From the IMG/VR virus record IMGVR_UViG_3300020474_002475, positions 32,001-96,000 of that record: 64,000 bases of DNA, one strand, 5' to 3'. How positions within the stretch are numbered: position 1 is the first letter of the stretch; each line of letters begins with the position of its first letter. Both the position numbers and the translations under genes were made by a program. The DNA is from a virus. This document shows positions 30,037 through 64,000 of the stretch, piece by piece. The notes under the pieces were generated by a model. It searched no databases. It saw only the letters and a list, made by a program, of their open reading frames with translations, and was not told where the DNA came from.

Positions 30037-31082
30037 TTATTACATATTTTCGTAGTTCTAGCTATAACACACACAATATGTGTGAACAACAATATCTATT
30101 TGATTATGTTCTTGGCTATAGATCTCCGTCTAATAAAAAAGCAGACAAAGGTACAATTGTACACAAAATATTGGAAATATTAGCTTTTGTTAAATTTACC
30201 ATACAAAAAAATGAACAAACATTTGAAGATGATATTTTGGGTAAAATCAATGTTTATAATTATGATTTAGACGATATTATTGATAGAGTCTATAATTTTT
30301 ACACATCGCACTTTACACATCATGAATGGAAAGATGTGGACCATAGAGATTGTAAAAAATGGAGTTATAAAGCGATAGAATATGCAGGAGGTATGTTTGA
30401 TCCTAGAAATAGAACCATCTTATATCCAGAACAAAGATTTGATATAACAATTGAAAAGCCTTGGGCAGAGTATGAATATGAATTGCCTAGCGGAGAAAAA
30501 CTAAAAGGACACCTATCTATTAAGGGTACTATCGATTTAATTACCAAACCAAGTGACAATACATTAGAAATCGTCGACTGGAAAACAGGGAGAAGACTTG
30601 ACTGGGCTACAGGACAAGAAAAAACTCAAGAAAAACTAGAAACAGATCCGCAGCTTATGATATACTATTATGCTGCTCAAAAACTCTATCCTGAAATAGA
30701 TCATTGTATCGTAACGATATACTTCATTAATGATGGTGGTCCTTTTAGTATGACATTCGACAAATCGCATTTACAAAAAACGGAAGACTTACTAAGAGAA
30801 AAATTTTATAAAATTAAACAATCCAATAAACCTCGACTATCTAAAACTTGGAAATGTAGAAAATTGTGTCATTATGGTAAAAATACTTTTCAAGGACATG
30901 ATAGTATATTGCCGATGCTTGAATATAGAGAAGGTCAAGTATGTAATCCGGGATATAATATGACGATGTGCGAACAAGTAGCTCATGACATAAAAACTAA
31001 AGGTTTAAAAAATGTTGTTGACGAATACACTGTTCCAGGGTATAATGTAGGACATTACCAAGCTCCTGGAAGTACAGAATGA
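30033..31082 (+). CDS. Cas4/AddB-like PD-(D/E)XK nuclease, probable non-canonical ATA start
   Basis: FRSSSY...MC N-terminal motif, GTIVHKILE, KGTIDL, IVDWKTG, QLMIY, C-terminal CRKLC...C (Fe-S staple pattern); frame open from TAA 29988 with no ATG/GTG/TTG before 30078; GAGGTG at 30022. Confidence 0.85.
   Translation: MIITYFRSSSYNTHNMCEQQYLFDYVLGYRSPSNKKADKGTIVHKILEILAFVKFTIQKNEQTFEDDILGKINVYNYDLDDIIDRVYNFYTSHFTHHEWKDVDHRDCKKWSYKAIEYAGGMFDPRNRTILYPEQRFDITIEKPWAEYEYELPSGEKLKGHLSIKGTIDLITKPSDNTLEIVDWKTGRRLDWATGQEKTQEKLETDPQLMIYYYAAQKLYPEIDHCIVTIYFINDGGPFSMTFDKSHLQKTEDLLREKFYKIKQSNKPRLSKTWKCRKLCHYGKNTFQGHDSILPMLEYREGQVCNPGYNMTMCEQVAHDIKTKGLKNVVDEYTVPGYNVGHYQAPGSTE
31018..31046 (+). promoter_or_regulatory. 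Sigma70-like promoter upstream of dnaE-N
   Basis: TTGACG-N17-TATAAT inside the 3' end of the nuclease gene. Confidence 0.65.
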
Positions 31083-33137: not shown

Positions 33138-33834
33138 TAGGAATAAGATTTGTGTATTTGACTTGGAAACTGACGGCGTCAATCCAGAAGTTTGCAGTCC
33201 TGTACAAATTGCTGCGGTTATTGTGGATCCTTTGAAATTAGAAATCGTACCAGACTCCGAGTTTAATATTACTCTTAAGCCGGAGTCCCTGGAACAAAAT
33301 CCTGAATATTGCTATGATGATTCTGATGTTTTAGATTTTCATGCAAAAGTTAGAGGGGTAAGCAAGGCTAAGATTTTAGAATCTTGGAAGAAATACCAAA
33401 AACAGGATCAAGCATGGAAGATGCTTACTAGCTATTTACAAATGTATCATACTAGATCAACTAAAAAGAATTGTTTTAGTGCTCCGATTGCTGCTGGTTA
33501 TAATATTAATAAATTTGATTTACCAATTATCAACAGACTTAGCAGTAAATATAAAACAGTAAACAAAGAAGGAAAGACCGATTTGTTTTATCCCAGAGAT
33601 GTTTTAGATATAATGAATGTAATATTTTATTGGTTCGAAAACAATAATGAACTAAAAAGTTATACATTAGATAATCTGAGAGACTATTTAGGCTTATCAA
33701 AAGAAAATGCTCATGACGCACTAAAAGATGTGCAAGATACTGCTCAAATAATGATAAGGTTTATGAAACTGTTTAGAAGTATGTCGCCAAAAATTAAATT
33801 TAAGGATTCATTTAATAGTACTGCAAATGTCTGA
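33133..33834 (+). CDS. dnaQ: DnaQ-like DEDDh 3'-5' exonuclease, probable non-canonical ATT start
   Basis: ExoI ICVFDLETDG (Asp lies upstream of the TTG at 33163), ExoII AGYNINKFDL, ExoIII AHDALKDV; in-frame TAG at 33121, GAGGTG at 33123. Confidence 0.88.
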   Translation: MNRNKICVFDLETDGVNPEVCSPVQIAAVIVDPLKLEIVPDSEFNITLKPESLEQNPEYCYDDSDVLDFHAKVRGVSKAKILESWKKYQKQDQAWKMLTSYLQMYHTRSTKKNCFSAPIAAGYNINKFDLPIINRLSSKYKTVNKEGKTDLFYPRDVLDIMNVIFYWFENNNELKSYTLDNLRDYLGLSKENAHDALKDVQDTAQIMIRFMKLFRSMSPKIKFKDSFNSTANV

Positions 33835-35452
33835 ATATTACACTTTTGATTGTGGTTGTAAATTTAAAATACTTGGGAATAGTAAAGAATTTCCTAGTAT
33901 AGATTTTAAACCGACTTTAGATAATTTAAATTTAGAATGTTCTAAAACTTGGGACTTAATATCTTCTGGCAATACCAAAGGATGTTTTCAATTAGAGTCT
34001 AGACTTGGTCAAACCATGTCAAAAAAACTTAAACCCAGAAGTATTGAACATTTGTCTGGATTAATCAGTATTCTTCGTCCAGGATGTCTTGAAGCAGTTA
34101 GGGATGGTAAAACTGTATCTAATCATTATATAGACAAGAAGAATGATCAAGAAACTGTAGATTATTATCATCCTGTTTTAAAAGAATGTCTTGAGAAAAG
34201 CTATGGCGAAATGATCTATCAAGAACAAGCTATGGAAATTGCAAGAGTAGTTTCTGGATTTAATCTGGAAGAAGCAGACATATTAAGAAAAGCAATTGGT
34301 AAGAAAAAAGCGGATTTGATGTCTCAGGTAAAGACTTCATTTATGGCAGGTGCAACCAAAATGGGTTTAGTAAATAAAGAAACCGCTGAAGAAATTTTTG
34401 GTTGGATTGAAAAGAGTCAAAGATATTCTTTTAATAAAAGCCATGCCGTTAGCTACGCTATGAACGCATATCTCTCTGCATACTCTAAGGCTCACTTCCC
34501 CAGAGTATTCTTTGCTTCATATCTTAAATTCGCTAAAGATAAAATAGACCCTCAACAAGAAATAAAAGAGCTGGTACGTAATGCTAACGAAATGGATATA
34601 ACCATCCATACTCCCGATATTAGAGAGCTAAATGAACTCTTTGCAATTAGACAAGGTAAAATATATTTTGGACTAACCGATATAAAAGGTTTAGGTCAAT
34701 CTGTATTTAAAAAATTATTAAAGATTGTTGAAAATGATAATATAGATATCGGCAAATTATCATGGTATCAAATGCTATATAAGATATTATGTAATATAAA
34801 TAGCACTGCTACCAAAGCCCTTATTGCATCAGGAGCATTAGATTATTTCAAAAAAACTCGCACAGAAATGCTATTTGAGTATGATATATTTACATCTCTT
34901 ACTAAGAAGGAAATCGAAAAAGCAGGAGATATTATAGAAAACGGAGCAGTTCCTTTAATCAGCATATTAACAGAATTATTAACTAAAAGAGTTAATATAA
35001 AAAGACAAGCTATAATAAATAATCTTATAGAAACTATCAAGCACCCCCCTTATTCTCTTATTGATAAAATAGAATGGCTATCAGATTCAGAAAATACTTT
35101 GTTAGGAACATCGATAACTTGCTGTAAATTAGACTCATATAATATAGATATGACTAATATGAACTGTAAAGACTTCAAGAAAACATATAAGGTAGAAGAT
35201 ATCATATTGGCTGCCGAAGTGGTTGGGGTTAATGTAACCAAAACTAAAAATGGTAAAAACCCAGGTGCTGAAATGGCATTTGTTACAGGAGAAGATCAAT
35301 ACGGGATGTTAGATTCAATTATTATGTTTCCAGAAACATGGGAAAAATACAGACCTCACGTTTTTGATGGTAATGTTTTAATATTCACGGGCAAAAAGTC
35401 AAAAGCAAAAGACAGTCTAATAGTAGAAAAATGCTTTGTTCCTAAGTCTTGA
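33827..35452 (+). CDS. dnaE: DNA polymerase III alpha, C-terminal part (fingers, HhH, OB fold)
   Basis: GCFQLES, ILRPG, YGEMIYQEQ, ADILRKAIGKK, YSFNKSHAVSYA, FGLTDIKGLG, MAFVTGED. Confidence 0.95.
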   Translation: MSEYYTFDCGCKFKILGNSKEFPSIDFKPTLDNLNLECSKTWDLISSGNTKGCFQLESRLGQTMSKKLKPRSIEHLSGLISILRPGCLEAVRDGKTVSNHYIDKKNDQETVDYYHPVLKECLEKSYGEMIYQEQAMEIARVVSGFNLEEADILRKAIGKKKADLMSQVKTSFMAGATKMGLVNKETAEEIFGWIEKSQRYSFNKSHAVSYAMNAYLSAYSKAHFPRVFFASYLKFAKDKIDPQQEIKELVRNANEMDITIHTPDIRELNELFAIRQGKIYFGLTDIKGLGQSVFKKLLKIVENDNIDIGKLSWYQMLYKILCNINSTATKALIASGALDYFKKTRTEMLFEYDIFTSLTKKEIEKAGDIIENGAVPLISILTELLTKRVNIKRQAIINNLIETIKHPPYSLIDKIEWLSDSENTLLGTSITCCKLDSYNIDMTNMNCKDFKKTYKVEDIILAAEVVGVNVTKTKNGKNPGAEMAFVTGEDQYGMLDSIIMFPETWEKYRPHVFDGNVLIFTGKKSKAKDSLIVEKCFVPKS

Positions 35453-41812: not shown

Positions 41813-42267
41813 AAGAAGATACCGGATTCATTTTATTAAAGATAACAAATAATACGACCAATGACGTTGTATTTAGCTCTATCTCTAAGTTTATAAAAGA
41901 TAATCCTTATCAACAAATATGTATTTTCAATAGCTCCAATGACAGAATATGTAATGAATTGGTGCCAATAGTACATTTAAATCAAGCAAAGTTTTTTAAT
42001 GGGAATTTAGTAGTATTCGATACCATGTCACTCTTGTTTGCTAAAAACTTTCCAAATATAAAAACTATTTTTATGTATGCTTCAGATATATTTTGGTCAA
42101 AAAATTCTTACTCTTCATATAAAAACATTGAATCTCTTTTTAAATTAAGTAATTTAGAATTTATAGCATCAAATCAAGAAACATACGATGTATATCAAAC
42201 GTGCTGGAAAAAACCTATAGGAATATGCGAGAACTTTAATTATGAAAAACTTAAAAAACTCATATAA
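41809..42267 (+). CDS. Hypothetical protein
   Basis: 152 aa coupled ORF. Confidence 0.65.
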   Translation: MKEDTGFILLKITNNTTNDVVFSSISKFIKDNPYQQICIFNSSNDRICNELVPIVHLNQAKFFNGNLVVFDTMSLLFAKNFPNIKTIFMYASDIFWSKNSYSSYKNIESLFKLSNLEFIASNQETYDVYQTCWKKPIGICENFNYEKLKKLI

Positions 42268-43045
42268 CAAACTAAATGAAAAAGAAAAAATAGATATTAT
42301 TAATCTTTATTATATAAAAAAAGAAAAAAGTTTTGATGAAATTTCTGAAATGTATAATACTTATCCTAATAGACTAAGAAGAGATGCAAAAAAATTTAAT
42401 ATACCTATTAGAAGTCGAAGCCAAGCACAAAAAAACGCTTTGAAAAAAGGCAGAACAACACATCCTACAAAAGGGATGTCCAGATCAATAGAGACTAAAC
42501 AAAAAATAGGTATGGCTGTTTTACAAAATTGGCAAAATATGGATGAAAAGAAATTAAAACAAATTAAACAAAAACAAAAAGAAATATGGAATAGTAAGTC
42601 AGAAGAAGAAAAAGCCAATTTACAACAAGCTGCTAATAATGCAATTAGACTATCTAGTAAAGTAGGATCAAAATTAGAAAAGTTTCTTTTATCAGGGCTG
42701 ATAGAAAATAATATAGATACTAAGTTTCACTATGAACAAACTTTAGTAAATACTAGATTGCAAATAGACCTGTACATACCTAGTATAAATTTGGCAATAG
42801 AAGTTGATGGCCCTTCCCACTTTGATCCTGTGTGGGGACAAGAGACATTACAAAAGACTAAAACCTATGATGACAAAAAACAAGGACTAATAATTGGTAA
42901 AGGTATGAAGCTAGTTAGAATTAAACAGAAGATGGACTTTTCTATGTCTAGATCTAGATTAATTTTGGATAAATTATTATTCTTGGTGGATCAGATATCA
43001 AACAATTTAACGAACGAAGAATTTTACGAAATAAAGGATATTTAA
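42242..43045 (+). CDS. HTH/NUMOD3-like DNA-binding region fused to a Vsr-like PD-(D/E)XK endonuclease
   Basis: SFDEISEMYNTYPNRLRR HTH, KGMSRSIETKQKIG NUMOD3-like, QIDLYIP, LAIEVDGPSH. Confidence 0.75.
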   Translation: MKNLKNSYNKLNEKEKIDIINLYYIKKEKSFDEISEMYNTYPNRLRRDAKKFNIPIRSRSQAQKNALKKGRTTHPTKGMSRSIETKQKIGMAVLQNWQNMDEKKLKQIKQKQKEIWNSKSEEEKANLQQAANNAIRLSSKVGSKLEKFLLSGLIENNIDTKFHYEQTLVNTRLQIDLYIPSINLAIEVDGPSHFDPVWGQETLQKTKTYDDKKQGLIIGKGMKLVRIKQKMDFSMSRSRLILDKLLFLVDQISNNLTNEEFYEIKDI

Positions 43046-44055: not shown

Positions 44056-46365
44056 TTACGCAGAATTTGGGTCTATACCAGAATAAATTGGCTGAAAATC
44101 GCCTTCGCCAGTAATTGTATTATCTTTTGAGTAGTAGCCTATATCTACAAGGTTTGCTACAGTGACATTAGATAGTATGGAATTTTTTCTATATGTTGTA
44201 TTCATAATATCTTTAATGCCGACATAAGGAGTGTCAACACTACAATTTAATGGTGTAAAGCATTCTCCGTCTGTTAAATAATTGTCTTCCCAAAAACTTG
44301 GAACATCATTAAAGTTGTTAGTGCTAGTAACGCCACTTGTCTGTTCTATAGGAATATATTTTCTGGTATATCCACCAGTAACACCATGCGCTACTCTATT
44401 ATATTCAATGCTTGTCTTACTATAAAAAGCTTGATCTAAGAAATAATTTGATACTACATTATTATCTCTACTCCATGATGTACTGCCAAAGCCAAGAGCC
44501 TGTCCTAATGCGCGAGTAAAAACGTTAACCCAATCTGCTCTAGAATAAGTAGGGTTTGCGGTACTTCGGTATCCATATCTTCTATTGATGAAAAGATTAA
44601 ATGACGTAGGGATTCTAAGAGAATCAATTGTAGCAAACTGTCTGCATTCTTGATCAACGTCCCTAGCTTTAATGCTATTTCCAAAAGCTGCTTTTTCTAA
44701 TTTTAAACCTTTCCAGCTGGTTCGAAAATTTACACTACTTTCATACTGAAGCTTGCACGCTTCATATCTTGACTTATCTTTTACTTCATATCTGTAGCCA
44801 TCATGAGCATCTGTATCCGTTACTTTGTGAAACTCAACCAAGCTTAGATGTTTATCCCATCTGTCGGCAGCTTCATTTAAAATACCAATCCAGTATTGAT
44901 CATTAAGGATATCAAAACTATGTCTGTCAAATAAACTTACGTCGGTAAGATTTATATATGGGCCATTACTATATCTATCTATATATGCTATTCTGGAAGG
45001 AAGAACATTAGTTCTAGTGGCATGTTTTCTGTATACATTAACTCCACCTTCTTTACCATAATATGCTGCTTTATACCATTCGTTTTCATTCGGTATAAAA
45101 TATCTAGCAAAATCTGTTCTTGTTAGAGTCTGTAAAGGATTACTTAAATCATAAGCTCCTTTATTAGTATTCGTTGTGTCGGTAGAGGTGCATCTATTAT
45201 GCAACCAATTGGAATATCGTGCTGCTTGAAGCCATGTAATACCAACAACAGGTTTGTTGTCTTGGTTTACTACAGGAATATACTTATACTCTATTACTTT
45301 TCCGCTATACGTTCTGCCAGTTGCTTCCCTTACAATACCGTGGCTCATATTAAGCTGTTTCCTATTACTCGCTGGCGTATAATATACTTCAGAATCGTTA
45401 GCATATTTAGCAACCTCGTTTAAATATGCACAATATTCACTATTAGTAACAACATATTTGCCAATATAGTAATTGTAATTAACACGACCATATCCTGGTG
45501 AAAAACCATCAGGATTATTACCGCTAGAATCAATTAAAACCATATTTTTTAAATTCAATGTATTGTCATCTGAAACTGTAATAGATAGACCAGTGCCTCC
45601 AGCTATTGGAGCTGCGTCCACAACTACTCTGTTATATGCTACCCCACTAATGGTTGTATAACTAGTAGACAAAGTTTGTACTTTAGTATTATCTTTGAAT
45701 AATGTAGAATTTTTAATGTCCATCCCAGGTGCAACTGTGATTTCACCCAATGATATTTGACCGGATGGAATATTGACTGTGGTATTACCGCTAGTCATTA
45801 ATACTCCTGTAAGATTAAATACTCTAGATGCTGCAGCCAGCCTAAAGCCTACAGAATCTGATGGAGAATTAGGAACTGAATACTGTAACGGTGATTCTTT
45901 ATTTATGTCTCCACTACTAGAAACATAAGAACCTCCTCTATTAGAATTACCATAGCCAAAATTTTGACTTGGAGGAATAAAGACGGGTGTTACTGTAGGA
46001 GGTCTGATAGGTTGGTCTGGTGGTGGCGGAGGACCTACAGGCACTCCAGAAGCAAAATTAAATTGACGTTCTATTGGGGCGTCAGATACTTGACGGTTTG
46101 CCGGAATAAAAATCTCAGACCCTGTAGGAGTAACAATAGGTTTAAAAGTATCATTAGCTGAAAACAATACCTTTTTTTCTATATGTTCAGAAACCCCACC
46201 TGTTTGATCGTATGTACCAAAAAATGAAGGAGATCCGTTTGTTCCGACACTAGTGATCAAAATGTTCGATGAATATGGGCCTGGAGCGCCCGTAGCATCA
46301 CGCAAACCCGAAGGAAAAGGAGATGTAGGGTGACCATAATTAGCAGTATTAATATTGTAGCTCAT
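44056..46365 (-). CDS. Virion or adhesin-like protein: permuted FGE (sulfatase-modifying factor, C-type lectin fold) halves plus inactive leishmanolysin (M8)-like domain
   Basis: N-terminal SVGTNGSPSFFGTYDQTGGVSE...RGGS...VGFRLA (FGE C-half); central IGKYVVTNSEY...PVVGITWLQAARYSNW...PNENEWYKAAYY (FGE N-half); C-terminal AADRW...TRALGQALGFG...IPIE...LSNVTVANLVDIGY. Confidence 0.8.
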   Translation of the reverse strand: MSYNINTANYGHPTSPFPSGLRDATGAPGPYSSNILITSVGTNGSPSFFGTYDQTGGVSEHIEKKVLFSANDTFKPIVTPTGSEIFIPANRQVSDAPIERQFNFASGVPVGPPPPPDQPIRPPTVTPVFIPPSQNFGYGNSNRGGSYVSSSGDINKESPLQYSVPNSPSDSVGFRLAAASRVFNLTGVLMTSGNTTVNIPSGQISLGEITVAPGMDIKNSTLFKDNTKVQTLSTSYTTISGVAYNRVVVDAAPIAGGTGLSITVSDDNTLNLKNMVLIDSSGNNPDGFSPGYGRVNYNYYIGKYVVTNSEYCAYLNEVAKYANDSEVYYTPASNRKQLNMSHGIVREATGRTYSGKVIEYKYIPVVNQDNKPVVGITWLQAARYSNWLHNRCTSTDTTNTNKGAYDLSNPLQTLTRTDFARYFIPNENEWYKAAYYGKEGGVNVYRKHATRTNVLPSRIAYIDRYSNGPYINLTDVSLFDRHSFDILNDQYWIGILNEAADRWDKHLSLVEFHKVTDTDAHDGYRYEVKDKSRYEACKLQYESSVNFRTSWKGLKLEKAAFGNSIKARDVDQECRQFATIDSLRIPTSFNLFINRRYGYRSTANPTYSRADWVNVFTRALGQALGFGSTSWSRDNNVVSNYFLDQAFYSKTSIEYNRVAHGVTGGYTRKYIPIEQTSGVTSTNNFNDVPSFWEDNYLTDGECFTPLNCSVDTPYVGIKDIMNTTYRKNSILSNVTVANLVDIGYYSKDNTITGEGDFQPIYSGIDPNSA

Positions 46366-46384: not shown

Positions 46385-47173
46385 CTAAGAAGTGGTAGGT
46401 GTCAAAGTTGGTGTAACGCTTGGGGTTATACTTGGCGTTACGCTAATTGTTGGCGTTAGAGTTGGAGTCACACTAATTGTAGGAGTAATTGATGGTGTTA
46501 TACTAGGAGTGGGTGTAGGAGTAGTAGTCGCTGTAGGCGTAGCGGCTATGTATCCAAGACTTCTAGAGGTTGGAGTGACAGTAGGCGTTGGGGCAGGAGT
46601 GCTGGTAGGCGTTGCTGTCACAGGGACTAGTGTAGGCTGAATCTTACACTCGGTGTCTGTACAGGTTAAAGTGTATGAATGTGAACTAGAAACATCGGAA
46701 GATATAAATACTACAACTTTATTTGCATTGACAGGTTTACATAAAGTTACGGTAGCGCTTCCAGATCTCATTCCCGTATCAAATATAATTTCATCTTTAT
46801 GTCCTGGAATACCAGACTTTTCAGTTCTGGCCACTACTACAAATCGGCTAGCAATAGAATATGCATTATATGCAAATGTAAGCTCTATTGCATCATCACT
46901 AACTTCATACTGATCTCCGTAGATTTTATATTCAGGATTAGTTCTTGTTACTGTTTGTCCGCATACTTGAGTAGAAGTTCTAGGATAGTTGTTTACATTA
47001 TCGTCTTCTGCATCATCTTCTACCGGAATTCCCAGCATATGTGCAAGAACTTGGACAAAATCGCCTACTGTTATTTTTCTTGTCTCACTAGTGTTTTTGT
47101 CTACTAATATTAATAAATCTTCATTAGAAACATCTAAAGTTTCAGCAATCGACAACTCTGAAATTTTTGGCAT
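46385..47173 (-). CDS. Structural or appendage protein with KISEL N-terminal motif and mucin-like Pro/Thr tail
   Basis: MPKISELS...DLLILVD...TRKITV fibre-type N-terminus; C-terminal about 80 aa of TP/ITPS/VTPT repeats. Confidence 0.75.
   Translation of the reverse strand: MPKISELSIAETLDVSNEDLLILVDKNTSETRKITVGDFVQVLAHMLGIPVEDDAEDDNVNNYPRTSTQVCGQTVTRTNPEYKIYGDQYEVSDDAIELTFAYNAYSIASRFVVVARTEKSGIPGHKDEIIFDTGMRSGSATVTLCKPVNANKVVVFISSDVSSSHSYTLTCTDTECKIQPTLVPVTATPTSTPAPTPTVTPTSRSLGYIAATPTATTTPTPTPSITPSITPTISVTPTLTPTISVTPSITPSVTPTLTPTTS
46388..46630 (-). repeat. Coding Pro/Thr/Ser repeat
   Basis: TPTSTPAPTPTVTPT...TPSITPSITPTISVTPTLTPTISVTPSITPSVTPTLTPTTS. Confidence 0.85.
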
Positions 47174-47203: not shown

Positions 47204-47216
47204 TAATATATACACC
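47204..47216 (-). promoter_or_regulatory. GGTGTAT motif on minus strand, putative phage promoter
   Basis: Reverse complement reads GGTGTATATATTA, about 30 bp before the ATG at 47173. Confidence 0.6.
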
Positions 47217-47587
47217 TACCATTTATTTATAGGACATTTTTGGTCTGCCCAAGCCAATTTGCTTATATAGTTTTTACCTTGTTTTAAGGGGCAGCCACAA
47301 AGTTTACAGCTGTGATTATGGAAATTCTCGCATTTTACGCAAATGTCGTATCTCTTGGATATGGTTTCTTCATCACACATTGGTGCTCCAAGAGCTATAT
47401 GATCAAATGTGGCCAAAGCAAAATTTTTAATTTTTTTAATAAAATTGCTCATTGTGCTATCTTTAGATATTGATGTGGTGCATAGATAGACAGGTTCAGA
47501 TAACTGATATTCTTTAAATAGTAATTCTGTATTACAATTTTTACACTTAAAATGCATACCGTCATATGTAATAAAATCACATCTCAT
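47216..47587 (-). CDS. Cys-rich small protein (DUF6171-like C-terminus)
   Basis: RYDICVKCE...CKLCGC...KLAWADQKCPINKW; start moved to ATG 47587. Confidence 0.72.
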   Translation of the reverse strand: MRCDFITYDGMHFKCKNCNTELLFKEYQLSEPVYLCTTSISKDSTMSNFIKKIKNFALATFDHIALGAPMCDEETISKRYDICVKCENFHNHSCKLCGCPLKQGKNYISKLAWADQKCPINKW

Positions 47588-47591
47588 TTTA

Positions 47592-50500
47592 TTAATCCTC
47601 AACCTCATAACCTGGATCATATTCATACGGTATCCATTCAAAAGGGTCTTTGCTTTCATCCAAATCGTCTATATGCTCTAGATTATCCTTGCTTCCAAAA
47701 TATGATCTAATAATCATTTCATTTTTAATTTTAAAATAATCAGGAACCGGCACGTGCTTAAGTTGATTGGTGTCTATACAATGCCACAAAGCCAATACGT
47801 TGCTAAATGGCCCTCCGGGGCCGATACTGGGCAAAACTTTTTCTAAATTTCCATTATAGTCTGCACCATATCTTTCATAGTGAGTATCCAATTTTCTAAG
47901 TTTCCTAGGTATAACCTTACTTCTACAAACAAGGTTATCAGACTCTAATACGGATTCGGGTATGATATCTTTTACTTTTCCTTGATACTCTTGGTATGCT
48001 TTACGATAAAGTCTGTTGCCGTCACTATCTCTTTTTTCTCCTGCATAGTTGTCAAAAAAGTCTTCGTTAGGCACTAAATACTTCTCAGTAACTTCTACTA
48101 AAATGTCTGATCGATTTGTATCTGGTCTAATAAAGAAGGATCTAGTTGCTGTACCTCCACCATCAGCCATTCTAGGTCCAGGAAATGTAATTTCTTCCCA
48201 TTGATTAGCTCCTATTCCGTATTTAGCATTGTAATCTACTTTTTGTCTAGCTATCTCATTTAATTGAACCTCATATGTAAAAACATTACCTGCATTATCG
48301 AATATAATTTCTGGAGATTGAAACCCTCTTGCTTGACTAGGACAAACATTCTGAGCATCTTGATCTAAAACAGGTATAACCCCCAGATCTCCCGCAACTA
48401 CTGCTGTTGTTGGAAAACAGGTATATTTGGCTTCTACTAAAATTTTTATACTGCTATCTTTGGATGTTTTGCACTTTTGGTGCGGATCTATATTAATCCA
48501 ATAAGATGGAATATCTGTATTTGCATATGATATTATTTTTATGGGTTCAAAATTATCTGTAGAGTTAAATATAATGGTGCCATGATATCGAATATCTGCA
48601 TTTCCATATGGAGTATATATTACATTATAAGTTTCCGGTTCATATATAATACCTACAGTATCTAATATATTTAGTAGCTGATTTCTTTCATTTGTTAAAT
48701 TAGATAATTCATTTCTCGCATTAAACTTTTGACATTTTTTAGCCCTATTAGCCACAACATAATCACTAGCAGAAAAACATGCAGCAGCATCTTCAGGAAG
48801 AGTATTAACTAATCTTTTCAAAAATGCTATGCTCATATTTTTATATAAAGTATCTTCATCAAATTCAGCATCTTGTTGATCCAAAAATTTTAATCTGGAC
48901 AAAATAAATTGAGACGCATCGTTTCCAAAAGAGACTGGAGTCACGGATTGTTTTCCTATAGCAACTCCTAAATTGTAAGCATAAGAAAATTCATAGTCAC
49001 CCTCTACACACAGATATCCATTATTATCAATATCTTTAAAATCTGAATTATTAAGCTCTACTATATTAGGACTATCGGGACCATTGTTGTGTACATTATT
49101 TAACAGATGTTCGAAATTATTAGGCCCAACAGTATCACGAGTAACTGGAACTTCAAGTTTTTCAGATCTATTGTTACTAATATTTTCCCAAGGTGAACCT
49201 CCATGTCCTTGAGGTGTGTTAAATACACTACTATCGTTATTATCTTTAGTGCTATATATATAATCTGATGAAAGTCTGTCTTTTGGATCAAGAATGTTAT
49301 AAATATTGTAGGAATAACCAGCAGTTAGAGAATGAGTTGGTCCATTTGCCATTCCTTGCAAAACAGTACCTTGTTCTTTTTTACTGTTATTTACGATATC
49401 TGAACCACCTAAATTATATGCAAAGTTTCTATCAGCTTTTCTTGTCTCAATCCTATCAGCATATTTGCTGGATGCAGAAAATAGTGTGATTCTATTATTG
49501 GGTTTTACATTACATTCTTGATTATTAAAAATGTCGAAAATAGTAGGAACATCATTAACTTGCAATTGATTAGAATAGGTTGTAGAATTTATAACGGGTG
49601 TTGCAGAACCATAGGCCCCTTTAGGGAAAAGAGTATTACCGGGAGGAGTAGCTGGATTTCTAGAATTGTAATGATCAGATTCTTTATCTGACCATATAAT
49701 AATATTAAAATCTTCTTCAGGTTTGAGTATTATTTCTTGTCCAGCACCAGGTCTGTTTGTCACAAATTCTAATACCGTATATTCTTTCTTATCCTTTAAT
49801 ATTTTACCTCTAGCCTTTACAATATATTCATCTCCAGATAGTGTTTGCACCGTATTGCCAACTTGAAAATAATTGTATGCTCTAGTACCTGCTATTAAAC
49901 ACATATTATTAAGCCTTCTAAGATCTAATGATAGTACATTGTTTTGACACAAAACAGGTAAAGGAATATTTGTATTATTTAATAATTCCCAACCTTCTTG
50001 TTTTGCAACATATAGGTTATCATTAAAATCTACCAACCCTCCTTCAGCAGGCAGTTTGTTAATAATCAAACCCTCTGAATTAACTATATTTAAAGACTGT
50101 TCTTCTATAGCTCCCATGCCAGAAAAAACATTACCTGTAAATAAATCTTGTAATTTTCTAACCTCTTCTACCACTGGAAAAACACTTAATTCTGGTATAG
50201 TATTTGTTTTAACATATTTTCTAATTTTGCGTTTAAGCAATGGTGTGTTACTATATTTATATATAGCAGCTTCTACATCGTACACAAAAGGTCCGTTTGC
50301 ACCTACTTGTAATAATATTTTATCATGACCACCAAAGCCTCTTTTAGTATAAACACTTCTGACAAATGCCTCCTTAAGTGCTGCTGCTACTCTTGCTCTT
50401 TTAATACTGCTTAAGAATCTTGTAATACCAGCCATAGCAGATAAAAATGCGCCAAAACCTACACTCAAACCAATAATACCACCCAAAGCTCCCACAGTTA

Positions 50501-53500
50501 AAGCCGCCAATCCCAAAGCTATAAGCTCTGATGGAAATCTAAGTTCTGGAGGTCTTCTTATAAGTGCAAGACTGTTGTCAATTGTTTCTCCATAACTGCA
50601 TGGATTTAAGTCTGCTAATTTTTGATTAGGTGCGTCTTGAACAGCTTGTGGTATCTTAAACTCTATATTAGGGTCTGACGATATAAAGTTATATCCTGGT
50701 ATGTTTGGTTCCCATCCATATTTAATTTGTCCAAGATTGTCTGTAGGAGTAAAATCATCGGTATCAAAATGTAAAATTAATTCCCAGGAACATAAAGAAT
50801 TAAAAACACTATCTGATCCTGGTTTAGTAGTTGTGGTATCTGTATATGTTTTGCTTGGTAAGTTACTAATGGTGTCCAAACTTGTCATATCATCATCATG
50901 AAAGGTCGATATTTGGAGAGTAAAAGTAGTCTCTGAATCAGGTTTTTCAATTTCTCCTTCTTCTGATGTTATGTCTAAAGCGCCTTGGAAAACAGGCTGA
51001 TCATAAAATTGAACAAAACTATTAACTGGCAAAAATATATCATTATTCTTGATAGCAGTAATGTATTCATCTGCATGAGGATAGCCCGTAGGACTTATAG
51101 CAAGAGTTGGTTGTAGCTTTATATAGTTTGTAGTATTAACTTTTTGATTGATATTGATCCCAGCGTTAGTATTAAGATTTCTAGGAGTCAGGTGTTTTGA
51201 GAATCTATCGGAAAAATGCAACACAGTATCAACCGTATTGGAATCTACATGTTCTTCATTTAACAAATTCAAAGTATAGGTACCATACCTAGTTAAATTT
51301 GTATACTGTAAATGTTCTAAATATTCCGCAATACCACTATGGTTCATATAGTTAGAAGGGACATTGACCTTTTCGCTTCTAGAGTTCTTGATTTCTGTCT
51401 TTAAGCCCTGATTAGATTTATCAACATTAGACAGAACAGGAGATGATTTTCTAGACAAAAGAAAGTTAAATGGATCGCTTCTAAAAGTAAATGCCTTCTT
51501 TTCCGGTGCGTTACCCTGTATAGTATCTACTAAATCAAAAGCATCTTGTTCTGGTTCTGTTAGCTTTCGAATTTTTTTACAACTCCTAACATTTAAAGAA
51601 ATTCTTGTATTTTTTAGATTTACTTGATTTAAAAAGTTTAATTTAACTTCAATATTTCTAATCTTAGGAAACAGCAGATTACTACCATATATTCTGTCGC
51701 CACCATCTCCTGACCCTCCTTTATTTTCTATCCTCCTACCTCTAACCCCCATGTCATAACCACCATAGCTTGCTGAAGTAAATTCATCCTGAAGCAAATA
51801 ATCTTTAGGTTTGTTTAGACCGGGATCACCAAACTGTCTATAACCGTGATGCACATCTATTGTATCGTTATCTGTAGTGTCTTGTAAGACCTCAACACTT
51901 CCTCCAGGTCTATCCACCATTGTTACATCTAGAGTAGAATTTGTCATTGAAATACTTGAAGACTGACTATCTATATCACCTCTTATGGTATTATAAAAAC
52001 CTTTACCGATAAATGAAAAAGTTGTTCTGTCTCCTGGATTAAATTTTAATGCACTGGTTTTATTATGAAAAGGCTCTTTAGTAGTGTTGAAGATAAAACC
52101 ACTTTCTGGATGAAAAGTTCCTTTACTAAATCTTATATTCGGATTATTAGCGGGATAATCATTCCTAGAATCTGTATCTGTATATATCTTTGCTTCTCTT
52201 AAGTAGCAAACTTTGCTTGCAGCATTTAAAGGATGACCGAATACAGTATCTACATTTGCTTTGGGAAGAATAAGATCTTTGGTTTTTAAGCCAACAACAT
52301 CGGTAACTAAAGTATCTTTCATATCAATAGACCCAAAACTCATATTAACTCCATAGTCAGATAAGGGTGGCATTGGATGTAAAGTTACCTCACTTTTTCT
52401 TATGCCTCTTTTTTGCTTAGGATTATATTCATATTCATTAAATACATCGGTTTGACCAGGTATGTCTCTATCAAATCGAGTTTCTGTTCTCGCATTTGGC
52501 CCCATAATAGTTCTGGTAGTATTATATAATAAATTCCTATATACGCTTTTACAACCAGAGTGGTTTCTGTCTCTAAGTCTTTCTAAATTAATTTTATATA
52601 ATTTTATTACAGTATTATTGGGTCTGTATCTTATGAAAAATTCCGTGGCGCTTTCACTAATTTCTTTTACAGGAGAATAGAAAAATTTATTATGCTTGTT
52701 TGCGCCGTCTAGTCTGCCTATGTAATACATTCCGTCCACCTGACCATCATCATTAGGTGCAGACACACTAGTAGATACAGAAACATAAGAATTACTTTTA
52801 ACAGGCTGTATAGCACCAAATTTGCTAAACATTAATTGGGTAATATTGGGAACGAATGATCTGTTATTATCATTAGGGATAATTCTAGCAACAACTCTTC
52901 TTCCATCAATAAATTTGTCTAATTCCCCTTCTCTATTTCTATTAAAAGTCACAGGACTCTTGCTAAAGGTATTATAGTAGTTTGGTGGCACAAAAGCCAC
53001 TGCCTTATCTACTATTCTCGTACCTGTTTGTTCTTTTGTAATTGGGTCAATAATCTTTTCTTCAAATTTATAAGCTGGCAACCCGAATTCATCAATCCCT
53101 ACATTACAACCGGTTTTATTTACTACATAAACATCTACCGTATCTTTTAGAGCCAATTCTCCTAATGTTACAGTAAGAGCTATTGTAAACTTACCAAATG
53201 TTCTAAATTTAAATTTAGGGTTGGGCTCAGTAGCATCTGAAATTGATAAACCCCTTTGTGGTCCGGATTGTTTGGTCCATTTATATTCTAAACTCCCAAT
53301 AGAGTAGAAAGGAATAGTGTCTCCGGCTTTATCAAGTATCTTTTGAATTAGTGAAAGATCTATTTCATGTTCTATATTAAAAGAACCTGTGGTCAGTCTG
53401 TCTACGCCTGGAGCAAAACTGAATCCATTAAATTTTTCTGGAACACCACATTGAGGATCTGGTATAGTAGCTGGAATATGTATATCAGGACCAGCACTAA

Positions 53501-55130
53501 AAGAAACATCTTTATCAATCTCATAAAGATCAAACTTTTTTGCAATATCAAATAAAGGGATATTATACTTTTTGCTCGCTTCTCCTTTTTCATTAACAAC
53601 AATCCTATATTCCGTTTTTTTATTATTAAAATTTGTTTCAAATCTGTAGCCACTATTTCTTCCAGACCTAAAGTCTAATGACATGTTATTATATACAAGA
53701 TCGTTTGATAAACCTTTAGAACAATGATTTGTCATAACTTGATTTATATATATATTAGGTTCTATTGATTCTTTGTAAGTAATTTTAGAGTTGTTACTTA
53801 TTAAAATATGAGGATTATATTTATACATCAATTTATTAAATAGGTCTGCAGGATTATTAATAAATCCATAAATAGAATTAGAATGATCAGGATCTACAGT
53901 TACTTGATTATTAGAATGCTCCTCACCAGATATAGATATTCCTGCAAAGAAATCTCTATTTATATCTCGCAATAAATTCATTTCATCATTATCGTTTTTT
54001 ATAGGCATTACCGGCTTTGGATTGCCTTCTTCGTCTTCGGTTTGTTGTAAAGCTTTGTATATTTTTAGCACTTGTGGACCGGGTGTAGAAAAACACTCTT
54101 GTGTAATCCTGTCTCGTAATGGATGGGTAGCAAAAAAACCAGCTATTTTACGTAAAATTTTAGCCTGACTACTTGAAAATCGTTTTCCTTTATAGGCACC
54201 TACTGCATCCAAACCTCTTTTTGAATATTTTTCGTTCTTACGAAAATCCCAAGGAACACCGATATGATTATCGTTCCGTCCATTCATTATATCATACATA
54301 CTCTTAGACAATACGTTATAAATATGTTGATAATCTTTCCAGAGTGTTGCCGAAATAAAGGTATCAGAACCGAAACCTTTTGCATTAAGCTCGTCTTGTA
54401 CAGTATTGCTCTCATAGTGTGAAAAAAAGTCTCCATCAGAAATATAAAGCTGCGCACCTGTTCCCTTTTTTTGATTAAGGGACAAAGAATTATAATCTGG
54501 GCTAACAGAATCGTCTCCGGGAAAAGCAGACATAGAAAAAAACTTAGTATCAGAATCTCCATATACATTAATAAAAGTATCGTCATTATGCTTTATAATG
54601 CAATCATTTGTGCCAAAATCATAAGATTTGCCGCTGAGAGAATTAGCGCTAAAAGATGAAACAACATTAAATTTAATGTTTGATGGACCCAACAGAAAAG
54701 AATATATTTGAGGATATTTTATCCATCCAAGTAAACCATAAGCAGGATGATTAGGAAAATTAGCATCTGTTAATACCCAGTCTACTACCATGCTGTTTGT
54801 AAGCTTCCAGGTATTGCATTTGGGTGCAAAGCTCATAAATCTTTCGATACCTAATTGATTGTCTAAAGGTACTGAAAAATTTCTATTAACTTTTTTAGTT
54901 ACAATTCTACTAGTGCTTCTAGAGATAAATATAGGCTGCCATATTTCTGCACTAGTATCGACACGGCTAGTCTTTATAGCTCTTCGTAAACGACTATAAT
55001 TAAAACTAACAGTATTTTCGCTACCATCTCCGTAATCTAAAAATAGACTATTGTCTTTGGATAGTCGCAAAGTGTATGGCGAAAGATCGTCAGAAAAAGA
55101 TTTATCTGTGAGGGTGCATCTAGAAGACAT
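47592..55130 (-). CDS. Very large virion-associated protein with PKD/Ig-like and P-domain-like segments and one long hydrophobic stretch
   Basis: 2512 aa; YKWTKQSGP...GKFTIALTV (PKD-like), IRNIEVKLNF...LCSWELIL (proprotein convertase P-domain-like), LIALGLAALTVGALGGIIGLSVGFGAFLSAMAGI. Confidence 0.75.
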   Translation of the reverse strand: MSSRCTLTDKSFSDDLSPYTLRLSKDNSLFLDYGDGSENTVSFNYSRLRRAIKTSRVDTSAEIWQPIFISRSTSRIVTKKVNRNFSVPLDNQLGIERFMSFAPKCNTWKLTNSMVVDWVLTDANFPNHPAYGLLGWIKYPQIYSFLLGPSNIKFNVVSSFSANSLSGKSYDFGTNDCIIKHNDDTFINVYGDSDTKFFSMSAFPGDDSVSPDYNSLSLNQKKGTGAQLYISDGDFFSHYESNTVQDELNAKGFGSDTFISATLWKDYQHIYNVLSKSMYDIMNGRNDNHIGVPWDFRKNEKYSKRGLDAVGAYKGKRFSSSQAKILRKIAGFFATHPLRDRITQECFSTPGPQVLKIYKALQQTEDEEGNPKPVMPIKNDNDEMNLLRDINRDFFAGISISGEEHSNNQVTVDPDHSNSIYGFINNPADLFNKLMYKYNPHILISNNSKITYKESIEPNIYINQVMTNHCSKGLSNDLVYNNMSLDFRSGRNSGYRFETNFNNKKTEYRIVVNEKGEASKKYNIPLFDIAKKFDLYEIDKDVSFSAGPDIHIPATIPDPQCGVPEKFNGFSFAPGVDRLTTGSFNIEHEIDLSLIQKILDKAGDTIPFYSIGSLEYKWTKQSGPQRGLSISDATEPNPKFKFRTFGKFTIALTVTLGELALKDTVDVYVVNKTGCNVGIDEFGLPAYKFEEKIIDPITKEQTGTRIVDKAVAFVPPNYYNTFSKSPVTFNRNREGELDKFIDGRRVVARIIPNDNNRSFVPNITQLMFSKFGAIQPVKSNSYVSVSTSVSAPNDDGQVDGMYYIGRLDGANKHNKFFYSPVKEISESATEFFIRYRPNNTVIKLYKINLERLRDRNHSGCKSVYRNLLYNTTRTIMGPNARTETRFDRDIPGQTDVFNEYEYNPKQKRGIRKSEVTLHPMPPLSDYGVNMSFGSIDMKDTLVTDVVGLKTKDLILPKANVDTVFGHPLNAASKVCYLREAKIYTDTDSRNDYPANNPNIRFSKGTFHPESGFIFNTTKEPFHNKTSALKFNPGDRTTFSFIGKGFYNTIRGDIDSQSSSISMTNSTLDVTMVDRPGGSVEVLQDTTDNDTIDVHHGYRQFGDPGLNKPKDYLLQDEFTSASYGGYDMGVRGRRIENKGGSGDGGDRIYGSNLLFPKIRNIEVKLNFLNQVNLKNTRISLNVRSCKKIRKLTEPEQDAFDLVDTIQGNAPEKKAFTFRSDPFNFLLSRKSSPVLSNVDKSNQGLKTEIKNSRSEKVNVPSNYMNHSGIAEYLEHLQYTNLTRYGTYTLNLLNEEHVDSNTVDTVLHFSDRFSKHLTPRNLNTNAGININQKVNTTNYIKLQPTLAISPTGYPHADEYITAIKNNDIFLPVNSFVQFYDQPVFQGALDITSEEGEIEKPDSETTFTLQISTFHDDDMTSLDTISNLPSKTYTDTTTTKPGSDSVFNSLCSWELILHFDTDDFTPTDNLGQIKYGWEPNIPGYNFISSDPNIEFKIPQAVQDAPNQKLADLNPCSYGETIDNSLALIRRPPELRFPSELIALGLAALTVGALGGIIGLSVGFGAFLSAMAGITRFLSSIKRARVAAALKEAFVRSVYTKRGFGGHDKILLQVGANGPFVYDVEAAIYKYSNTPLLKRKIRKYVKTNTIPELSVFPVVEEVRKLQDLFTGNVFSGMGAIEEQSLNIVNSEGLIINKLPAEGGLVDFNDNLYVAKQEGWELLNNTNIPLPVLCQNNVLSLDLRRLNNMCLIAGTRAYNYFQVGNTVQTLSGDEYIVKARGKILKDKKEYTVLEFVTNRPGAGQEIILKPEEDFNIIIWSDKESDHYNSRNPATPPGNTLFPKGAYGSATPVINSTTYSNQLQVNDVPTIFDIFNNQECNVKPNNRITLFSASSKYADRIETRKADRNFAYNLGGSDIVNNSKKEQGTVLQGMANGPTHSLTAGYSYNIYNILDPKDRLSSDYIYSTKDNNDSSVFNTPQGHGGSPWENISNNRSEKLEVPVTRDTVGPNNFEHLLNNVHNNGPDSPNIVELNNSDFKDIDNNGYLCVEGDYEFSYAYNLGVAIGKQSVTPVSFGNDASQFILSRLKFLDQQDAEFDEDTLYKNMSIAFLKRLVNTLPEDAAACFSASDYVVANRAKKCQKFNARNELSNLTNERNQLLNILDTVGIIYEPETYNVIYTPYGNADIRYHGTIIFNSTDNFEPIKIISYANTDIPSYWINIDPHQKCKTSKDSSIKILVEAKYTCFPTTAVVAGDLGVIPVLDQDAQNVCPSQARGFQSPEIIFDNAGNVFTYEVQLNEIARQKVDYNAKYGIGANQWEEITFPGPRMADGGGTATRSFFIRPDTNRSDILVEVTEKYLVPNEDFFDNYAGEKRDSDGNRLYRKAYQEYQGKVKDIIPESVLESDNLVCRSKVIPRKLRKLDTHYERYGADYNGNLEKVLPSIGPGGPFSNVLALWHCIDTNQLKHVPVPDYFKIKNEMIIRSYFGSKDNLEHIDDLDESKDPFEWIPYEYDPGYEVED

Positions 55131-55145
55131 TTTATCCTATTAAAT

Positions 55146-58100
55146 TTAATTACTTGATATTAAAATCCACTTACCACCATTATAATTAAAAAATCCAGTA
55201 TTCCCAACTCGAATACCTAACTTATTTTCAAAATTAACTTTCATAGTTGGCATACTTCCAGCCGCTTTGCCTTGAGCATAGCTCATTTCTATTGTGGCTA
55301 AATTACCTATAATGGTACCAAATGCGGTATATGATGGTTTAGACACTGGCTCATAAAAACCAGAATCACTATCATATCTACATAAAAATTTAGCACCTCT
55401 AGGTGCAGTCCAACCGCTTTTATCTTTTACATATACTAATCTTCTAGAGCCAACAGGCAACGGCTCTACACTATATTCTAATTCGTCTAAATAGCCTCTA
55501 GCAGCAAAAGTTTCATCGTAATGATCTGCTGGCTTAATTAAATCTTCTTCTAAAGTAATGTATACCATTTTATATAAACTAGCAGCAGATGGAACTGACC
55601 AAACTTTTCTTTTAGTATCCCATCTTAAATCTACTGGTCCTACAGGCCATAAATCAGGTCTTTCCCCAAAATTTAAATAGAACTCATTTAGTCTGGTTTT
55701 TTTACTCCAGCTTTTGCCATCCCACGCTTGGGTTTTACTAATAATATCTCCTTGAAAGCCAACAGTTCTATCACCACTATAATCATCAGATATTACAAAA
55801 CCTCCTGCGTTTTCCATATTATTTTCATAAGTATAATATGTTACATTAGTATCATCTGCTGGAACAGCAGACTCTTCTCCTTTAACAAGTAGTTCGCGGC
55901 CAGAACTATAAACTCCACCAAATGGAACGTCTTGATATTTTACATCTTGACTAGTTTTTATTTTAAGTGCAAATCTTTTAGGTCTACCAATACTATCTAT
56001 TTCATAAGGCTCTTCTGCTGCATTTGGCACAGGGAAACCGTCACTGTCGTATCCCCAAGCATGCATAGTTAATGGTCCCCTAAGACCCAAAAATCTTTGA
56101 TTCATTTGATAATTAGGTAATATAGGTATAGATCCTGTATCTCTATTGTCTGTTATATCTTTTAGTTGTAAATCTTCATTATAAAAATCTGCCTGATGAC
56201 CATCCTTAAAATCATATACGTTATCTGTAATGGTTAAATTCTCTTGAGGAATAGCTCCTCTGGCTACTATCTCTATACTATGTCTACATCTATCATAAAA
56301 AGGTCTTTCTTTACCAGCTAATTTTAGAGAGTCATGTTTTCCGTCTGGATGAGCCCCTTGGTAGTTTTGAGTATTGCTGTTTCTAAATTGTCCTTTAGAA
56401 ACAAGAATTGGATTTAGTGTCAATAAATTAATAGCAGAATTACCTGAAGTATTACTGGAACTGCTACCTCCAGTTCCTAAGCTCTTGAATTGTTCCAGTA
56501 CGTTTAATGTAGATAAATTAGTAATAATATAAGGAGGAAGTGTTTCGGAAGATTGTCCTGTGGCAGTACTAGATAAGGTATATTTTAATTTTTTATCTTT
56601 TCTTTCACATTTATCGCAATATACAAAATCAACAAAATTTGAAGTATTTCCATCTGTGTAATACTTATATTCGCTTTTTATTTTTTTTGTACCTTTACAA
56701 AAGGGACAGGTGTCTAGATCATATTTAGAGTAACTATAAGTGCTGTTTTTGTGAGTAGGATAAAACGATACAGGAGACAGTAAACCATCAAGACTCATAG
56801 CGGACTGCATGCCATAATTTTCGCCTAATTGTGCCCTGACTTCTTTAAGTTCGTGCATACCAACATCTGTCCTATATCTCAAATTGTTTAACATCATAGG
56901 AATATGTGATTGGGTATTTTCCAATAAGTCTTCTGGTTTAGCGGATTCATTATCTCCAACATCTTCTGATTTTGGCAAACTGTAATTTTTGGATGCTTCT
57001 CCTCGAACCGCAAAACCTTCAGGTTCTACGTATAAAGAAGATGGAGGTATATAATCTGGCTGAACATCTAAAGATTTTAAAAATGGAGAAGCTTGTCCAA
57101 TAAAAACAGTAGTAGGACTCCAACCAAAAAGCTTACTACTAAAACCAATACTATCGAAATATGAATTTGCTTCCCCCAGCCTTTTGTCTTCTCGTATTTT
57201 AAATTGACTTATTTCTGTATTTACAGCCTGCTGTCTGACACTAGCTATTTGTTTATCTCTTTGTACAAGTTCTTTTCCTTGTTTTGTAATTTTGTCTATT
57301 TCTGTTTTATTAAAAAGTCCTAATTTTTTTGTGTATGTTCTTAATGAATAAGTACTAGTAATACCCTGATTGCCTATATTTACCTGTATGTTGGTAATAA
57401 CCGTTTGAGGTTTTGCTATCTGTGTATCTAGTCTTATAGTTTCGTATGTTACATCTACATTATTGTTCACTACGGGTTTAGCAGAACTTAAACTAGAACC
57501 AAAACTATTAGCGAAACCTATCTCAGAAAAATTTGATAATGAATTAGTATTACTTTTAACATCCGTATAAGAATACTGGCTTCTTCCAATATATTTACTA
57601 AAATCTACAGACACATTATTAAAACTATCTAAATCAAAATTGCCACCTAGATCAAATATTGGCAATCCTGGCATTTGTATCTGAGCTGATTCTATAGTAT
57701 TCTGATAATTTAATTTAGAATAAGCCTTAATATTGGCTATTTTATCCATAAAGGGTGCTCCTCCAAAATTCCATGGAGTCAATTCTTCATCGATTTCTAC
57801 AGAAGTAGCGCCTATAAAATTATCTATAAGATTTTTAGCCTGTTCGGTATCAACTGATATATCTGTTGAAGTACAAGTATAAGGTAATTCATTACTTAAT
57901 TTAATATCTTGACCACCAGGAAATATAGAATCGGGATTTCGCAAATAATCAACATAGACATTATTAGACCAAGGACCATAAACATAATTATTCATTTTAA
58001 TTGGTATGCCAGCAAAAAACGGATGAGCAGCTTTAGGGGCTATTTCAACATGATTAGCAGACTCCTCTGTATCAACGGCATAATTGCCTTTAAAAATGTT

Positions 58101-63999: not shown

Positions 64000-64000
64000 C

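Follow-up and report, generated by a model that had tools for sequence, protein, structure and literature searches.

Introduction

How can a protein that carries the C-terminal half of a lectin-like domain in front of the N-terminal half still form that domain, and would it do so within one chain or between subunits? The question is raised by an open reading frame (ORF) of 769 amino acids (aa) at positions 44056-46365, minus strand, of a 64,000-nucleotide (nt) stretch of viral DNA, referred to below as the window, which corresponds to positions 32,001 to 96,000 of the IMG/VR virus record IMGVR_UViG_3300020474_002475. The whole record has 117,939 bp and an estimated completeness of 83%. According to the ORF listing and the profile matches described below, the ORF encodes a permuted domain of the formylglycine-generating enzyme (FGE) type followed by a leishmanolysin-like domain. 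A first-pass annotation, made from the letters alone, had noticed the exchanged halves in residues 1-472 (window 44950-46365) and had proposed two readings, an intramolecular circular permutation or complementation in trans, by which the halves of successive subunits would build a head-to-tail fibre. The results presented here point to the first of them: the C-type-lectin-like domain of FGE type in this protein is quite probably a true circular permutant that has become fixed in evolution, and it would fold in cis, lack catalytic activity and serve as a surface adhesin.

The reversed halves of the FGE-type domain

The 769-aa protein gives a significant match to the FGE-sulfatase profile (Pfam PF03781), yet not as one contiguous domain in N-to-C order. 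Residues 297-448 scored 49.3 bits (cut-off 23.3; E 6.9e-13) and aligned in a single stretch with positions 35-136 of 255, and a Pfam scan of the first 192 residues alone placed residues 142-177 on positions 217-254 of 255, below the threshold (E 0.079, 13 bits). A hidden Markov model (HMM) of 269 positions, built from 45 complete canonical domains among the homologues of the protein and called here the canonical HMM, resolved the arrangement into three pieces, all encoded on the minus strand. The first piece of the C-half (residues 7-66, window 46168-46347), containing the GTYDQxG motif, covers positions 181-227 (independent E-value, i-E, 4.3e-6 with 121 targets), and the second (residues 141-177, window 45835-45945), which runs from RGGS to VGFRLA, covers positions 234-269, the end of the canonical domain (i-E 0.043). 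The N-half (residues 290-460, window 44986-45498) covers positions 6-173 with an i-E of 1.4e-40 and stops at the profile position from which the C-half takes over. The halves meet at position ~173-181 and are complementary, in reversed order and without overlap, rather than each being a complete domain.

Two further segments separate these pieces. A Pro-rich insert (residues 67-140, window 45946-46167, minus strand, 22% Pro) interrupts the C-half, its flanks matching profile positions 227 and 234. A spacer domain (residues 178-289, window 45499-45834, minus strand), predicted by the model described below to be all-beta, occupies the meeting point of the ancestral C- and N-termini; no family was found for it in the profile scan, and Foldseek gave weak matches only, to small beta-barrels and phage tail proteins.

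The same order was seen in comparison with solved structures. In a PDB search with a profile of the permuted proteins, the N-terminal piece matched the C-terminal ends of FGE, pFGE, TvpA, PvdO and PorK chains (e.g. 1y1e 216-295 of 311, 2y3c 212-291 of 294, 1y4j 199-266 of 284), and the middle piece of the family profile matched N-terminal parts of solved chains, such as 1y1e 37-151 and 2aft 24-138 of 286. All were canonical chains, no solved permuted form being turned up by this search, and phmmer of the single 769-aa protein against the PDB sequences gave nothing meaningful. The exchanged order described by the first-pass annotation was therefore borne out by Pfam, by the canonical HMM and by the solved chains, as were its Pro-rich insert and, as predicted strands, its beta-rich spacer; the FGE-sulfatase scan it had suggested gave the two partial matches in reversed order, the C-terminal one being sub-threshold in Pfam. 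On these alignments the protein appears to be a permuted variant of the FGE superfamily (PF03781), not a canonical member.

An in-frame TAG stands directly 5' of the ATG at 46365, and a purine-rich tract lies upstream of the ORF. Therefore the protein has no further-upstream start and its N-terminus is real. The possibility that the N-half is supplied by a frameshift from, or a fusion with, the upstream 262-aa ORF was rejected, because of this stop and because the 262-aa protein is devoid of FGE pieces.

Conservation in full-length relatives

Of 7999 candidates scored in the homologue search, 193 proteins passed at E<=0.001. The full-length relatives are 714-759 aa long, plus four of ~1090-1115 aa. 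Aligned jointly, they are 32-58% identical to the window protein, and all 11 share the piece order and the piece ends; three pieces were detected with the canonical HMM in ten of them, and in P0019 the first and last pieces were detected and the middle piece was not. The residues that define each half are invariant in the alignment of the 12 family members, among them G41, T42, G44, S47, T51-Q54, G56 and E60 in the first C-piece, and G144, G145, G173, F174 and R175 in the second. The retention of this architecture in 11/11 full-length relatives at such identity suggests that it is old and not accidental.

The long relatives carry an insert of ~290 aa exactly at the site of the Pro-rich insert. 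In P0010, P0013, P0014 and P0017 these ~290 extra residues (alignment columns ~100-380) contain segments that by eye resemble the spacer, and the spacer domain may have been duplicated into the insert loop of these proteins.

Gene order was compared in two related viral loci, L004 and L006, and was found to be alike: a giant ORF, an ORF of ~125 aa, an ORF of 263-348 aa, the homologue of the 769-aa protein, and convergent genes of matching sizes.

Permuted units in a wider set of proteins

With the canonical HMM 250 proteins were classified, or 251 after the addition of a second gene of the same virus. Both the protein and the locus sets were ranked by likeness to the permuted query, and the frequencies that follow should not be taken as those of an unbiased census. 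Tandem pairs of canonical domains (FF) were the pattern of 78/250 proteins, and triplets (FFF) of 10/250. One permuted unit, a C-half followed by an N-half, was found in 50/250 and two such units in 27/250; the pattern of the 769-aa family occurred in 14/250. Half-full-half arrangements, in which canonical domains (F) stand between a leading C-half and a trailing N-half, were seen as C-F-N in 10/250 proteins and as C-F-F-N in 1/250.

In all, 138 permuted units were recognised in 100/251 related proteins, and their breakpoint is conserved: the C-piece starts at a median profile position of 176 (interquartile range, IQR, 171-178) and the N-piece ends at a median of 177 (IQR 175-183). The corrected C-to-N linker has a median of 20 aa (IQR 18-24, range 11-103), as compared to ~110 aa in the window protein, and is of the same order as the inter-domain linker of the tandem arrays (median 33.5 aa, IQR 21-74). 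First C-pieces start within 12 residues of the N-terminus in 55/114 cases, and in 35/103 the last N-piece reaches to within 20 residues of the C-terminus. Because the units so often coincide with the protein ends, the permuted unit seems to be autonomous. The proteins P0011, P0012, P0018, P0024, P0134, P0136, P0145 and P0241 showed C-F-N or C-F-F-N patterns, and such half-full-half proteins could be read either as tandem permuted units or as canonical domains flanked by orphan halves that pair with one another.

The frequency of tandem arrays among the relatives, together with the peptidase-like domain of the window protein, which is without its motif (see below), would suit a tandem FGE array in decay, or an ORF called as a gene in error, with pieces that have neither a joint fold nor a function. 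Such an origin is hardly credible when set against an intact ORF with a defined start, the architecture and the invariant residues kept in both halves by 11/11 full-length relatives, the like gene order in L004 and L006, and the 138 units with the same breakpoint; moreover, the last 120 residues show high conservation, also in the three family members that have lost the zinc motif HExxH. The first-pass annotation had named a recent broken array without a conserved breakpoint as an outcome that would refute its proposal, and the breakpoint was found to be kept in relatives.

Predicted folding of the two halves

Residues 1-475 were modelled as a monomer with AlphaFold2 from an alignment of 52 sequences. 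The check thus made of a suggestion in the first-pass annotation gave a confident model, with a mean predicted local distance difference test score (pLDDT) of 80.8 and a predicted template-modelling score (pTM) of 0.82. Values of pLDDT below 50 were limited to residues 16-22, several segments within 76-128 (the Pro-rich insert) and 472-475; block means for the spacer strands 182-278 were mostly above 90. A single-sequence AlphaFold2 run of the whole 769-aa protein had a mean pLDDT of 28. In the two-chain prediction described next, the VGFRLA strand (172-178) is in contact with 299-306, 372-374 and 422-425, residue 177 lying against 300-301, a predicted pairing that would be expected if the old terminal strands still meet.

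When the halves were given to the program as separate chains, the interaction prediction score from aligned errors (ipSAE) was 0.85 (median of 3 runs), versus 0.00 for the best of 3 controls; the mark applied to this score is reached by 58/80 solved complexes and by 2/110 mismatched pairs. At least 79% of the contacts were common to the two-chain runs, and the partner pLDDT was at least 56. The packing of the halves is thus predicted. The two-chain result may stem from solved FGE folds on which the model was trained, and it indicates likeness to the fold and not binding.

The proposed course of the chain is as follows. It would start at a canonical surface loop (profile ~177) and run to the canonical C-terminal strand VGFRLA, leave the domain through the ~110-residue beta domain inserted where the old termini met, and re-enter at the canonical N-terminus. 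The domain would end at the loop from which it started (position ~173), the chain continuing into the leishmanolysin-like domain, and the two halves would combine, in the same chain, to make one lectin-like module. Folding in cis would be expected because all elements of the fold are present in one chain, the ends to be joined belong to adjacent strands, and linkers of at least 11 aa (~110 aa here) suffice.

In chaperone-usher pili the pilins lack a strand in their own chain and are completed by donor-strand complementation. The likeness of the present protein to these pili is limited to the idea of a fold completed by a neighbour, since no element of the fold is missing from its own chain and the linker is long enough. 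Pairing in trans, in which a C-half would be completed by the N-half of a different subunit, would give an open head-to-tail polymer or a closed swapped oligomer, e.g. a trimer. It is physically conceivable given the predicted association of the halves as separate chains; in addition, phage fibre proteins are commonly oligomeric, and the terminal halves of the C-F-N (10/250) and C-F-F-N (1/250) arrays must find a partner. A lone half was nevertheless found in 0/101 viral ORFs with FGE pieces, the halves always occurring in one chain; the linkers (11-103 aa, or ~110 aa in the window protein) permit closure in cis between ends on adjacent strands, and the monomer model is confident in cis. Trans pairing is accordingly considered unlikely. 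Of the two proposals of the first-pass annotation, the intramolecular permutation is supported by the complementary pieces, the fixed breakpoint, the old architecture, the confident monomer and the strand contacts, and no support was found for the head-to-tail fibre.

A related and likewise unlikely suggestion is that the permuted unit, beyond being a re-wired monomeric lectin, is an assembly device. The permuted termini would lie at a loop far from the old termini, and the half-domains present at the ends of C...N, C-F-N and C-F-F-N chains could close rings within the chain, and could also swap between chains into trimeric heads or open head-to-tail fibres.

Lineage, distribution and origin

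A tree was calculated from 421 N-halves spanning profile positions 12-165, leaving out P0002 (identical to the query) and P0006 (a fragment). The labels permuted and canonical change 14 times on this tree, compared to a mean of 124 and a minimum of 111 for shuffled labels, the best split is correct for 343/372 sequences, and the 769-aa family nests among the compact permuted units. Permuted and canonical domains thus appear to form largely separate lineages; kin share labels, so the changes are not a count of events.

The distribution differs between viruses and bacteria in this sample. In viral contigs 227/263 stretches were confirmed as relatives, and of the best 75 loci, which were kept, 67 had classifiable units; permuted units were present in 64/67 of these viral loci (best 75 of 227), 62 having permuted units only. 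In prokaryote genomes, mostly metagenome-assembled genomes (MAGs) of Planctomycetota and Verrucomicrobiota, 449/600 stretches were confirmed and the best 80 loci kept, 76 with classifiable units; permuted units were found in 0/76 of these bacterial loci (best 80 of 449), all 76 being canonical. Ranking by the permuted query should favour permuted matches in the viral and prokaryote collections alike. The closest cellular relatives were found in Planctomycetota and Verrucomicrobiota MAGs, and this kinship may hint at the host range of the viruses.

Some natural circular permutants, e.g. among DNA methyltransferases, are explained by duplication and loss of the ends. The FGE relatives resemble these permutants of the duplication type in having tandem copies, half-full-half intermediates and a fitting linker length. 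Since tandem arrays are common, half-full-half intermediates exist and the linker lengths are comparable, the permuted unit most likely originated from tandem canonical domains which lost the first N-half and the last C-half, i.e. permutation by duplication.

A full-text literature search, with subscription journals and supplements outside its scope, gave no description of a permuted FGE/SUMF domain. The FGE domain family and its use as a binding scaffold were already known; new are the permutation as a fixed trait, the frequency with which viral contigs carry it, and the insertions by which it becomes a three-part protein.

Enzymatic activity and possible function

The cysteine pair of FGE is located in the C-terminal part of the domain. 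Residues 1-190 of the 769-aa protein, which include the whole C-half, contain no cysteine; the cysteines of the protein are at 312, 392, 537, 574, 702 and 708. FGE activity requires the active-site residues Cys336 and Cys341 (human numbering), as stated in PMC4505483. Because this required pair is missing, the permuted module would not be a formylglycine-generating enzyme.

The remainder of the protein (residues ~470-769, window 44059-44958, minus strand) was recognised as a leishmanolysin (M8)-like domain from the Pfam matches of the relatives and from the alignment. Relatives share with leishmanolysin the HExxH motif and a later His; the window protein has lost all three motif residues. At the zinc site it reads TRALGQ (617-622, window 44500-44517) in place of the HELGH of the relatives, and FWE (691-693) in place of HWE, so that the motif His, Glu and His are replaced by Arg, Ala and Gln, and the later His by Phe. 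HExxH is present in 9/12 family members and replaced, together with the later His, in the window protein, P0003 and P0005. Peptidase_M8 (PF01457) was matched at E<=0.01 by 7/12 family members, in three relatives with 21.0-23.2 bits versus a cut-off of 21, and there was no Pfam match to it in the window protein. Among the ESM Atlas structure matches nine of ten were Peptidase_M8 clusters, with template-modelling (TM) scores of 0.51-0.55, below the level at which the tool assigns a name, and they are taken as leads; the family profile matched no solved M8 structure at E<=0.1.

With the FGE cysteine pair absent and the M8 zinc residues lost, the protein most likely functions as a binding protein and not as an enzyme. 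The automatic source names of the relatives ('formylglycine-generating enzyme') and the HExxH kept in 9/12 family members, some of which may be peptidases, speak for another reading, by which the phage would deliver a working enzyme, either of the FGE/EgtB/PvdO kind or an M8 peptidase. For the window protein this is most improbable in view of a C-half without cysteine in a family whose activity depends on the active-site pair (PMC4505483), of the replaced zinc residues and of the lack of a Pfam peptidase match. The protein is probably a host-surface adhesin, recognising glycan or protein, within a phage module of giant fibre-like proteins.

Comparison with known systems

Canonical FGE-sulfatase domains (PF03781; human FGE 1y1e and its paralogue pFGE 1y4j) show clear sequence homology to both halves. 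They differ from the window protein, which has reversed halves, two large insertions and no active-site cysteines. The best-scoring solved relatives of the permuted profile are PorK/GldK, the FGE-like lipoproteins of type IX secretion (9mzu, 9ots; E 2.5e-11). Both halves are detectable in them and they carry an insertion at the same site, between the GNVxEW and RGGS strands; unlike the viral protein, they keep the canonical order, and they serve in bacteria as ring components associated with the outer membrane.

TvpA of Treponema denticola (2y3c), whose residues 212-291 of 294 are matched by the N-terminal piece of the family, is described in PMC5758913 as using the FGE-type lectin fold as a binding scaffold without FGE activity, and the same text places Mtd, a more distant protein of Bordetella phage BPP-1, at the tips of phage tail fibres. 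In both the domain is C-terminal, in canonical order and diversified by a retroelement, whereas the window protein is permuted, the viral record (83% complete) is without reverse transcriptase and the gene is without a template-like repeat. The gene was considered as a target of a diversity-generating retroelement (DGR), and this was rejected on 0 RVT_1 matches in the record and a longest non-self repeat of the gene of 28 nt.

Genomic context

The 769-aa gene closes a long minus-strand run of very large ORFs (570-2512 aa). Twelve consecutive minus-strand ORFs were counted, several of them of 1000-2500 aa (window 47592-55130 and 55146-61502, and genome C1:96001-116876). A Cys-rich ORF of 147 aa (window 47216-47659) lies between the 2512-aa and 262-aa ORFs and matched phrog_13558 (E 1.8e-8), with weak zinc-ribbon-like hints in Pfam; an ORF of 124-127 aa is found at the same place in L004 and L006. 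The upstream 262-aa ORF ends in Thr/Pro-rich tandem repeats of the TPTITPTIS type (window 46385-46640), and the plus-strand ORF at 46392-46640 looks like a mirror image of these repeats and not like a gene.

A second permuted-FGE gene of the same virus has its 3' end in the window (63484-64000, minus strand) and runs on to genome C1:98954 (L003 784-3084). Its frame of 1157 aa contains HMM pieces at residues 885-966 (profile 187-269) and 987-1148 (profile 2-173), the compact unit ending 9 residues before the stop, and only the N-half of the unit falls in the window (~63511-63996). A long Thr/Pro-rich linker, with repeats of the kind that end the 262-aa ORF, precedes this unit at the very C-terminus, and repeats resembling those of LVIVD-type beta-propellers were read by eye in the frame. 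Besides the 769-aa and 1157-aa frames, no ORF of the viral record carries FGE pieces.

The replication genes are on the plus strand and include those for a DnaB-like helicase, a Pol III alpha-like polymerase and a ribonucleotide reductase. Two ORFs encode the polymerase; they align with consecutive stretches of the same PHROG profile (41-611 and 622-1074 of 1190) and have a DnaQ/RNase_T-like exonuclease ORF between them, the three ORFs occupying window 31079-32953, 33163-33834 and 33827-35452. An HNH/homing-endonuclease-like ORF (window 42242-43045; phrog_559, E 2.4e-14) belongs to the plus-strand block that converges on the 769-aa gene.

Assessment of the proposed interpretation

Several observations weigh against a cis-folded permutant with the role of a surface adhesin. 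With regard to the domain itself, the second C-half piece is weak when taken alone (i-E 0.043 with the canonical HMM; E 0.079, below the cut-off, in Pfam). Foldseek with the confident model gave no FGE-fold chain among the 50 matches listed and nothing at E<=0.001 in the PDB, and therefore the fold is unconfirmed by structure comparison; in the viral library there was one match at E<=0.001, to a collagen-repeat protein with a TM score of 0.14, the others being weak matches to phage fibre and virion proteins. Domain-swapped proteins are folded in cis by monomer predictions too, so the confident model is also compatible with swapping. As to prevalence, the protein and locus sets were ranked by likeness to the permuted query. 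Megablast and tblastn searches of 50,697 deposited phage records were negative for the gene and the protein and also for the N-half by itself (E<=1e-3), hence no cultured relative, yet 227 related stretches occur in uncultured viral contigs. With regard to the role, the location in the virion is suggested by gene context: neither Pfam nor PHROG gave a family for the neighbouring giant ORFs, the two largest in the window, and the ORFs further upstream gave a protease-like match (phrog_3677), an RCC1-like one and a single weak match to tail-fibre assembly.

Implications

FGE-sulfatase matches in viral metagenomes are routinely named as enzymes by automatic annotation. The viral form would appear instead to be a distinct, non-catalytic, permuted lectin-like module with a fixed breakpoint, and in annotation a pair of half-matches in exchanged order is best taken as a single domain. 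The permuted unit could thereby mark candidate receptor-binding proteins or adhesins of uncultured phages. For the C-type lectin fold it would also be a clear case from nature of permutation by duplication, in which the tandem arrays and the half-full-half intermediates persist. If an unbiased census upholds the contrast between viruses and bacteria, it would suggest that the re-wiring of this domain was selected for the building of fibre proteins.

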